A DNA stretch of 39,816 bases, from the sequence record NC_011040.1, one strand, 5' to 3'. Of the stretch, positions 21,931 through 23,160 are shown piece after piece (the first letter of the stretch is position 1; each line of letters starts with the position of its first letter). This DNA is from Escherichia phage BA14. Position numbers and translations under genes: made by a program. A model generated the notes under the pieces. It saw nothing but the letters and a program-made list of their open reading frames with translations, was not told the DNA's origin and ran no database searches.

Positions 21931-22974
21931 ATGGCTAACATTAATGGTGGACAACAGATGGGTAAAGACCAAGGTAAAGGCATGAGCGCTGGTGATAAAC
22001 TGGCTCTGTTCCTGAAGGTCTTCGGTGGTGAAGTTCTGACTGCATTTACCCGTACCTCCGTAACTATGAACAAACACCTTGTGCGTTCTATTCAGTCCGG
22101 TAAGTCTGCGCAGTTCCCTGTGCTGGGTCGTACCAAAGCTGCTTACCTGCAACCGGGTGAGAACCTTGATGACAAACGTAAAGACATGAAGCACACTGAG
22201 AAGACCATTAACATTGATGGTTTGCTGACTGCTGACGTTCTGATTTACGACATCGAAGACGCTATGAACCACTATGACGTGCGTTCTGAGTACACCGCAC
22301 AGTTGGGTGAATCTCTGGCAATGGCTGCTGATGGCGCGGTTCTGGCTGAAATGGCTAAACTGTGTAACCTGCCGTCTGCGTCCGATGAGAACATCGCAGG
22401 TCTCGGTAAGGCTCATGTACTGGAAGTTGGCGAACAGTCCGCTCTGAAAGGCGACCAAGTTAAGCTGGGTCAGGCGATTATCGCACAGTTGACTCTGGCT
22501 CGTGCCAAGCTGACCAGCAACTACGTTCCTTCAAGTGACCGTGTGTTCTACACCACTCCTGATAACTACTCTGCGATTCTGGCTGCTCTGATGCCTAACG
22601 CTGCAAACTATCAGGCACTGATTGACCCGTCTACTGGTTCTATCCGCAACGTCATGGGCTTTGAAGTAATCGAAGTTCCTCACCTGACTGCTGGTGGTGC
22701 TGGCGAAGACCGTACAGAAGAGGGTGTAAATCCGACTGGTCAGAAACATGCGTTCCCTGAGACTTCCTCTGGTGACACCCGTGTTGCTCTGGACAACGTT
22801 GTCGGTCTGTTCAATCACCGCTCTGCCGTTGGTACTGTTAAGCTGAAAGACATGGCACTGGAACGTGCTCGTCGAGCTAACTTCCAAGCAGACCAGATTA
22901 TCGCTAAGTACGCTATGGGTCACGGTGGTCTGCGCCCTGAAGCATGTGGCGCGCTGGTTTTAAAAAAGTCTTAA
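21931..22974 (+). CDS. 10A: Major capsid protein 10A
   Basis: 347 aa, RBS GAAGGAGA; collinear with T7 gp10A (KLALFLKVFGGEVLTAF, FQADQIIAKYAMGHGGLRPEA). Confidence 0.97.
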   Translation: MANINGGQQMGKDQGKGMSAGDKLALFLKVFGGEVLTAFTRTSVTMNKHLVRSIQSGKSAQFPVLGRTKAAYLQPGENLDDKRKDMKHTEKTINIDGLLTADVLIYDIEDAMNHYDVRSEYTAQLGESLAMAADGAVLAEMAKLCNLPSASDENIAGLGKAHVLEVGEQSALKGDQVKLGQAIIAQLTLARAKLTSNYVPSSDRVFYTTPDNYSAILAALMPNAANYQALIDPSTGSIRNVMGFEVIEVPHLTAGGAGEDRTEEGVNPTGQKHAFPETSSGDTRVALDNVVGLFNHRSAVGTVKLKDMALERARRANFQADQIIAKYAMGHGGLRPEACGALVLKKS

Positions 22975-23108
22975 CTTCTCACAAACTCGTAGGGGACGCT
23001 GAGTCCCTTACTGAAGTTGAGCAAGAGCTAACGCCACAACAGAAAGCTGCCCGTACCCGTGCGGCAAACAAGGCTCGAAAGGAAGCTGAGTTAGCTGCTA
23101 CTGAATGA
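21931..23108 (+). CDS. 10B: Minor capsid protein 10B, via programmed -1 frameshift at A AAA AAG (22962-22968)
   Basis: The -1 frame from the slip site stays open 46 codons and encodes ...TPQQKAARTRAANKARKEAELAATE, matching the T7 10B C-terminal extension as I recall it. Confidence 0.7.
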
Positions 23109-23119
23109 TAACTATATGA

Positions 23120-23160
23120 AACCCCTTGGGTGCCTTCGCGGGTGCTTGAGGGGTTTTTTC
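23120..23160 (+). terminator. Intrinsic terminator after the capsid gene (Tphi position)
   Basis: AACCCCTTGGG...CTTGAGGGGTTTTTTC, GC-rich hairpin plus U-run, near-identical in form to T7 Tphi. Confidence 0.8.

Follow-up and report, generated by a model that had tools for sequence, protein, structure and literature searches.

On which heptamer do ribosomes change frame where the capsid gene of Escherichia phage BA14 ends? The question is raised by a single base. BA14 is a T7-like phage of the genus Berlinvirus (Studiervirinae); the window analysed here is the whole 39,816-nt sequence of record NC_011040.1, and all features described below lie on its plus strand. Gene 10A (21931..22974 in the list of open reading frames (ORFs); stop TAA at 22972-74) encodes the major capsid protein of 347 aa and 37.05 kDa, which matches the Pfam family Gp10A-like (PF21703, E=5.8e-108). 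Its zero frame ends CTG GTT TTA AAA AAG TCT TAA, with the GTT five codons ahead of the stop. This end contains a 13-nt slippery tract, G GUU UUA AAA AAG (22956..22968), made up of three overlapping in-phase heptamers: G GUU UUA (22956-62), a T7-type site with its final base altered; U UUA AAA (22959-65), which overlaps both of the others; and A AAA AAG (22962-22968), which lies in the X XXY YYZ phase of the zero frame. A -1 frame extension (22968..23108) then runs for 46 codons (VLTSHKLVGDAESLTEVEQELTPQQKAARTRAANKARKEAELAATE) to a TGA at 23106-08, directly followed by a TAA, so that a double stop closes the frame. The predicted shifted product, the minor capsid protein 10B, has 392 aa and 41.9 kDa.

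The slippery motif in 10A is more than a chance occurrence. The overlapping heptamers of the tract are the sole in-frame X_XXY_YYZ motifs of the gene, and AAAAAAG occurs once on both strands of the 39.8-kb genome, where shuffled sequences hold 6.07 copies (sd 2.46). Besides the A6 at 22962-22967, no run of six or more A residues occurs in the genome, and the TTA at 22960 is the sole TTA among the 34 Leu codons of 10A, 27 of which are CTG.

Production of 10B by -1 frameshifting within 22956-22968 is very likely, because homology, a conserved -1 ORF, a conserved RNA structure and a product demonstrated in a 96%-identical relative all point to it. At the nucleotide level, the capsid region is 97.7% identical to that of Erwinia phage FE44, 96.4% to that of Kluyvera phage Kvp1 and 94-96% to those of 285P, BSP161, PYPS50 and other Berlinvirus members; across 25 kb, the best identities are 93-94%. 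When public assemblies were queried for the exact 10A protein, no identical entry came up. 10B is annotated as a joined coding sequence (CDS) in Kvp1 and FE44, and the -1 ORF as a separate ORF in 285P, PhiV-1, PZJ0206 and Yepe2. In Kvp1 virions, a 43.6-kDa band above gp10 was seen on denaturing gels (SDS-PAGE), and peptides identified by mass spectrometry cover the -1 tail; the authors concluded ‘programmed -1 frameshifting at TTTTCA’, a polyU/Phe site, and contrasted such polyU/Phe slippage (Kvp1, phiA1122) with the lysyl slippage of T3 and phiYeO3-12 (PMC2579914). Kvp1 and FE44 share with BA14 the 347-aa 10A, the 392-aa 10B, the same -1 tail, the downstream stem-loop and the terminator; they differ at the slip site, where Kvp1 has G GTT TTC AAC AAG and FE44 has G GTT TTC AAA AAG, against G GTT TTA AAA AAG in BA14.

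The -1 extension is open in all 31 distinct DNA sequences obtained from 45 related loci, and the tail core ELTP(A/Q)QKAARTRAANKA (ELTPxQKAARTRAANKA) is conserved among them. The pooled ratio of nonsynonymous to synonymous polymorphism (pN/pS) is 0.56 in the -1 frame; the two remaining frames have values of 1.05 and 1.16. The BA14 tail is 73% identical to the T7 10B tail over 26 aa (BLASTP, E=1e-11). Our account of T7 frameshifting draws on the Atkins 2016 review and on Slootweg 2006: 10B, whose presence in virions is shown for T7 as it is for Kvp1, is made at about 10% (PMC1635266), and the gene 10 heptamer is G GUU UUC, with G_GU as its X_XX (PMC5009743). BA14 and T7 have homologous capsid genes with a heptamer at the homologous position, 4-5 codons ahead of the stop, a homologous tail core (LTPxQxAARTRAANKARKEAELAA) and a Tphi-like terminator with CCCC. 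They differ in that the BA14 heptamer has an altered last base and is joined by a lysyl heptamer; the BA14 tail also departs from the T7 tail in its N-terminal half, and the local RNA structure is unlike that of T7 in sequence. The initial annotation had proposed, from the letters of this stretch, a T7-like 10A/10B programmed -1 frameshift with an in-frame canonical A AAA AAG and a tail resembling that of T7 10B. Homology, the annotated relatives and the Kvp1 product bear this out; its positions for the 10A end, the heptamer, the -1 frame and the TGA are all correct, and its statement that T7 shifts at G GUU UUC agrees with the T7 sequence and the literature (PMC5009743). The 10A/10B product itself is already known and annotated in the closest relatives; what is new in BA14 is the single-base slip-site variant.

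That variant is a derived C-to-A substitution at 22962, which turns TTC (Phe) into TTA (Leu) and completes the A6 run. At this site T7 has G GTT TTC AAA GTG. Among the Berlinvirus-type sequences, Kvp1, 285P, BSP161, S523, PZJ0206, PhiV-1 and Carena read G GTT TTC AAC AAG, while FE44, Yepe2, Yep-phi, PYPS50, CECAV_058, ErnstBeyeler, JSS1, SPLA4 and RN5i1 read G GTT TTC AAA AAG. D226 (G GTT TTC AAA AAG TCT TAA) differs from BA14 (G GTT TTA AAA AAG TCT TAA) at the site by nothing other than C instead of A at 22962. The first reading of the locus had taken the different slippery site to belong to the lineage; this does not hold, since G GTT TTC is kept at the homologous position in 21/21 other distinct Berlinvirus-type sequences. 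As far as the aligned sequences tell, the slip site of BA14 is a one-base derivative and no lineage trait, and the T7-type heptamer persists as G GTT TTA. Further ordinary substitutions are seen around the site (22969, 22981), in line with the divergence of a relative of about 94-98% identity.

BA14 alone carries the variant among the 45 related loci compared at this position, and TTA AAA AAG is found in no other locus among 80 IMG/VR capsid loci. A search with the 54-aa -1 ORF against 5.8 billion proteins returned 19 clusters and 25 called -1 ORFs. The string GFKK occurs in 0/25 of these; seven of them begin upstream of the slip site and read FQ(Q/K), and six of Berlinvirus type span the site. 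The exact pattern GGTTTTAAAAAAGNNNTAA had at least 120 matches in IMG/VR, and GGNGCNNTNGTTTTAAAAAAG had 6 in IMG/VR and at least 120 in metagenomes; among the matches listed for either pattern, none adjoins a T7-like capsid gene.

A change of the same kind is present outside the genus. Whereas all other Teseptimavirus sequences have G GTT TTC, the Salmonella phage Vi06 (locus L342, ~1635-1653) of that genus reads G GTT TTA AAG, i.e. U UUA AAG, and its clade relatives CHRF_10025, Sal_R1S and CHRF_10027 keep TTC. Vi06 resembles BA14 in having undergone an independent TTC-to-TTA change that makes a lysyl heptamer, in being a singleton within its clade and in having an annotated minor capsid protein; it differs in genus and in the heptamer formed, U UUA AAG rather than A AAA AAG. 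T3 and phiYeO3-12 likewise have T7-like capsid genes with a -1 shift on a lysyl AAG codon close to the gene's end, but their heptamer is C CCA AAG and their tail is Ig-like and about 85 codons long, in contrast to the short T7-type tail of BA14.

What the substitution would do to the slipperiness of the tract can be gauged from a survey of frameshifting in E. coli reporters, which gives percentages in three contexts: no stimulator, IS911 stimulators and the IS3 pseudoknot (Sharma 2014, PMC4066793). The values in that order are 0.29, 4.3 and 39% for AAAAAAG; 0.03, 0.29 and 1.7% for GGGUUUC; 0.04, 0.13 and 0.47% for GGGUUUA; and 0.10, 0.09 and 1.07% for UUUAAAA (PMC4066793). With the IS3 pseudoknot, the tetramers UUUC and UUUA reach 1.78% and 0.21%, and an A-site UUA shifts 4- to 9-fold less than UUC (PMC4066793). 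A_AAA_AAG is one of the three most efficient motifs, and the genes of E. coli show a strong avoidance of it in frame (z=-10.1; PMC4066793). On these reporter values, the C-to-A change should weaken the ancestral site and create a much more slippery one 6 nt downstream. It follows from the sequence that tandem slippage leads to one and the same junction, ...ALVLKK|VLTSHK..., whether it takes place on G GUU UUA, U UUA AAA or A AAA AAG, so the junction peptide cannot assign the slip site; slippage in the P site only, before UUA is decoded, would differ by placing Phe344 in place of Leu.

A AAA AAG is also the heptamer of E. coli dnaX, and the site had been described as dnaX-type. The likeness extends to the identical heptamer and the same kind of tRNA-Lys; the remainder of the dnaX signal is absent. 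There is no Shine-Dalgarno-like element about 10 nt 5' of the heptamer, that is, at the dnaX spacing, the sole match to the anti-Shine-Dalgarno sequence being GGUGG at 22924-28, 34 nt upstream (-6.3 kcal/mol). Rfam, including its DnaX element, gives no match at E<=10. Nor is there a dnaX-type simple stem-loop 5-6 nt 3' of the heptamer; the stem of the minimum-free-energy (MFE) fold begins at 1 nt, and only an alternative register begins at 6 nt. The dnaX stimulator has another architecture and spacing than the BA14 stem-loop, and the dnaX shift yields the shorter product, whereas the BA14 shift would yield the longer one.

The RNA downstream of the tract folds into a bipartite stem-loop of 52 nt (22970..23021; MFE -21.8 kcal/mol, z=-3.2), which we call register A. 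It consists of a 9-bp outer helix (22970-78/23013-21), a 10-nt internal loop and a 9-bp inner helix (22989-97/23003-11) capped by the apical loop GCUGA. The hairpin GGGAC-gctga-GTCCC that had been placed about 20 nt downstream is present at 22993-23007, 24 nt past the heptamer, but is just the apex of this larger conserved structure. In 11 distinct Berlinvirus sequences, 198/198 cells of register A are paired and four pairs are changed on both sides, values that 0/500 shuffles reach. All of these double changes come from the divergent sequence L018, which on folding adopts the same architecture with a different inner-stem sequence. In L012 and L017, pairing is kept via G-C/G.U exchanges that alter an amino acid, and variation across the stem-loop is concentrated in the apical loop. 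The base of register A lies 6-7 nt past G GUU UUA, 4 nt past U UUA AAA and 1 nt past A AAA AAG; the usual spacer for 3' stimulators is 5-9 nt (PMC5009743).

The lower stem can also pair in an alternative register B (22975..23025), in which 22975-81/23018-25 and 22985-88/23013-17 are stacked on the same inner helix. With 22970-73 occupied by the ribosome, its predicted energy is -20.6 kcal/mol, and this register starts 6 nt past A AAA AAG. Here 98.2% of cells are paired and five pairs show double changes, which 0/500 shuffles reach. The two registers lie 5 nt apart. The structural argument does not decide for either heptamer, because register A suits the old one and the conserved register B suits A AAA AAG. 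We also considered the BA14-specific G-to-A change at 22981 as a compensation, as it converts a G.U of register B into A-U; this was set aside, the in-silico revertant folding equally well or better.

Farther downstream lies a Tphi-type terminator (23118..23159), found by folding and by a terminator scan, with an 18-bp hairpin, a U-run and CCCC at 23122-25; a terminator is annotated at this place in FE44, Kvp1 and Yepe2. The CCCC of the T7 terminator has been reported to affect gene 10 frameshifting (PMC5009743), and GGTTTTC taken out of its native 3' context gives less than 1% shifting (PMC1635266). Pairing of the terminator CCCC with the inner-stem GGGG was considered as a candidate interaction and set aside, as members of the T7 group do not all conserve the GGGGG found close to the T7 site. 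According to the Kvp1 paper, there is ‘no typical slippage site’, and a putative pseudoknot lies 144 bp downstream (PMC2579914). Within the literature covered, namely the Kvp1 paper and the Atkins 2016 review, we found no mention of a local gene 10 stimulator, the review naming the distant CCCC only (PMC5009743).

The Teseptimavirus group has its own conserved helix about 7-9 nt past G GUU UUC (T7, L005, 1200-1260; columns 14-22/65-74 of alignment A2), the 5' arm of which contains the 10A stop codon. At columns 20/67 (UG/CG/UA) and 21/66 (GU/AU/GC), three pair types each are seen with pairing kept, and the helix is maintained by changes from G.U to G-C or A-U on either arm. The conservation of the Berlinvirus stem-loop and of this T7-group helix suggests that the two are candidate local frameshift stimulators.

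Also of note is the variety of stops and tails among the relatives. In Yepe2 (L003, 1358-1490), the 10A stop is changed from TAA to CAA, which lengthens 10A by six codons and also converts an outer-stem G.U to G-C; a 1-nt indel truncates its -1 tail (...ANKGS*) and shifts the conserved KARKEAELAATK end into the zero frame. In the Y. pestis phage Yep-phi (L011), the -1 ORF ends 15 codons past the 10A stop (...LTEV*), leaving a truncated 10B tail. Four loci (L016, L030, L033 and L081) join the T7-type G GTT TTC to a -1 tail of a different, long type of 84-90 codons (...YFKGIAVGETLVTVSF...); across T7-like phages, the type of slip site and the type of tail appear to vary independently of each other. 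Five others (L049, L061, L064, L066 and L077) have long -1 tails of 85-87 codons behind ACA AAG or GAA AAG, with an A_AAG tetramer only and no full heptamer where T3 has C CCA AAG.

With moderate confidence, we explain the locus as a whole as a Berlinvirus 10A/10B -1 frameshift in which A AAA AAG is mainly used and the bipartite stem-loop stimulates. Most ribosomes would stop at the TAA at 22972-74 and yield the 347-aa 10A, and a minority would slip back by one base inside 22956-22968, read 46 more codons and yield the 392-aa minor capsid protein 10B. The ancestral G GUU UUC AAA AAG, which FE44, D226 and others retain, would have mutated from C to A at 22962; T7-type Phe slippage would thereby be weakened (UUC to UUA) and the lysyl heptamer A AAA AAG completed. 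On this heptamer, the single enterobacterial tRNA-Lys would re-pair from AAG to AAA. A AAA AAG may carry most of the shifting, with smaller shares for G GUU UUA and U UUA AAA. The conserved bipartite stem-loop immediately downstream would act as the stimulator, with a lower helix that can form 7 nt past the old heptamer or 6 nt past the new one. We favour A AAA AAG because of its slipperiness in reporters, the avoidance of AAAAAAG and A6 elsewhere in the genome and the precedents of Vi06 and T3; as the main site it is our best single guess, and it is unproven.

Several points weigh against this explanation. The MFE register lies 1 nt past A AAA AAG and at a canonical 7 nt from the old heptamer, while register B is 1.2 kcal/mol weaker and must form as the ribosome advances. 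Unstimulated A AAA AAG shifts at only ~0.3% in reporters (PMC4066793). Covariation in the stem-loop stems mainly from one divergent sequence (L018), and both of its arms also encode conserved amino acids. The known stimulatory requirement of T7, a distant terminator element (PMC5009743), is left unexplained. Because 10B is a minor species, the singleton variant could also reflect a sequencing error or a mutation that arose recently and is neutral or mildly deleterious. Finally, the slip site that BA14 would use and the efficiency of its shift are predictions from the nucleotides.

The favoured explanation has to be weighed against one that differs in the heptamer alone, namely that the ancestral position, with G GUU UUA and/or U UUA AAA, still accounts for most of the shifting, since there the MFE stem-loop would stand at the mRNA entrance of the ribosome, and that A AAA AAG is an incidental by-product of the C-to-A change that contributes little. 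We regard this as rather unlikely, though the structure lends it some weight: register A, the more stable fold (-21.8 kcal/mol) and fully paired in 11 sequences, begins 7 nt past G GUU UUA and 4 nt past U UUA AAA, close to or within the usual 5-9 nt, and just 1 nt past A AAA AAG, and with a strong pseudoknot U UUA AAA reaches 1.07%, near the 1.7% of GGGUUUC. The near-isoenergetic and conserved register B, however, lies 6 nt past A AAA AAG; an A-site UUA cuts shifting 4- to 9-fold relative to UUC, and A AAA AAG exceeds these motifs in shifting by 20-80 times when the stimulators are the same. Slippage might instead have dwindled altogether, 10B being strongly reduced or lost; the C-to-A change would then have struck a dispensable minor product with neutral or slightly deleterious effect, and the new heptamer, with no stimulator at the right place, would work at a background of ~0.3%. 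The low shifting of GGTTTTC without its native 3' context (<1%; PMC1635266) and of unstimulated AAAAAAG (0.29%) would agree with such a loss, as would the decay of the tail in Yep-phi (truncated) and Yepe2 (indel) and the singleton state of the variant. Yet BA14 keeps an intact -1 ORF with its conserved core, as well as the double stop and the stem-loop, and TTC to TTA is seen only where the next codons give a lysyl heptamer (BA14 and Vi06, just two cases); a loss is distinctly improbable in our view.

Two further explanations dispense with the new slip site. We think it very unlikely that the true phage has the G GTT TTC AAA AAG of its family and that the A at 22962 arose by an error in sequencing or assembly or reflects a minority variant. 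The base is unique among the 45 related loci, which include the 21 other distinct Berlinvirus-type sequences, and it adjoins a homopolymer; against an error, the change is a substitution and not a length error, the ordinary substitutions nearby (22969, 22981) match the expected divergence, and the same kind of change arose independently in Vi06. Least probable to us is transcriptional slippage, by which the phage RNA polymerase would add one A on the T4A6 run and 10B would be made by standard translation as an identical protein. One extra A would indeed give GTT TTA AAA AAA GTC and the same ...VLKKVL..., and the run is the sole A6 of the genome. The productive cases described in bacteria and phages, such as Thermus dnaX, have longer runs, of about nine or more. 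Kvp1, moreover, makes 10B with no A-run at all (TTC AAC AAG), and the conserved downstream RNA structure is the signature of ribosomal frameshifting and does not mark transcriptional slippage. The Thermus dnaX case is mentioned in the Atkins 2016 review (PMC5009743).

We envision, tentatively and as a possibility rather than a probability, that BA14 may have been caught while its slip site is turning over. A single transversion would have taken the shift from a Phe-type to a Lys-type heptamer 6 nt downstream with 10B unchanged, a move that would be feasible because the lower helix can pair in two registers 5 nt apart and could serve the one site as well as the other. Vi06 would provide another case of independent origin, and the proximal stimulator that gene 10 frameshifting has long lacked would be the local stem-loop, with its T7 counterpart. 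On such a reading, a single base would swap a weak, stimulator-dependent Phe-type heptamer for one that ranks among the most slippery known in enterobacteria while leaving the protein unchanged, with a parallel in Vi06, and the locus would be a natural experiment on the drift of a recoding site between the ‘T7’ and ‘T3’ modes. Perhaps more useful to specialists may be the covarying stem-loop 6-7 nt past G GUU UUC in Berlinviruses, together with the counterpart helix of the T7 group. For annotation, 10B should be joined at the 22956-22968 tract, and for capsid-display engineering on such phages, a different 10A:10B ratio would be expected.

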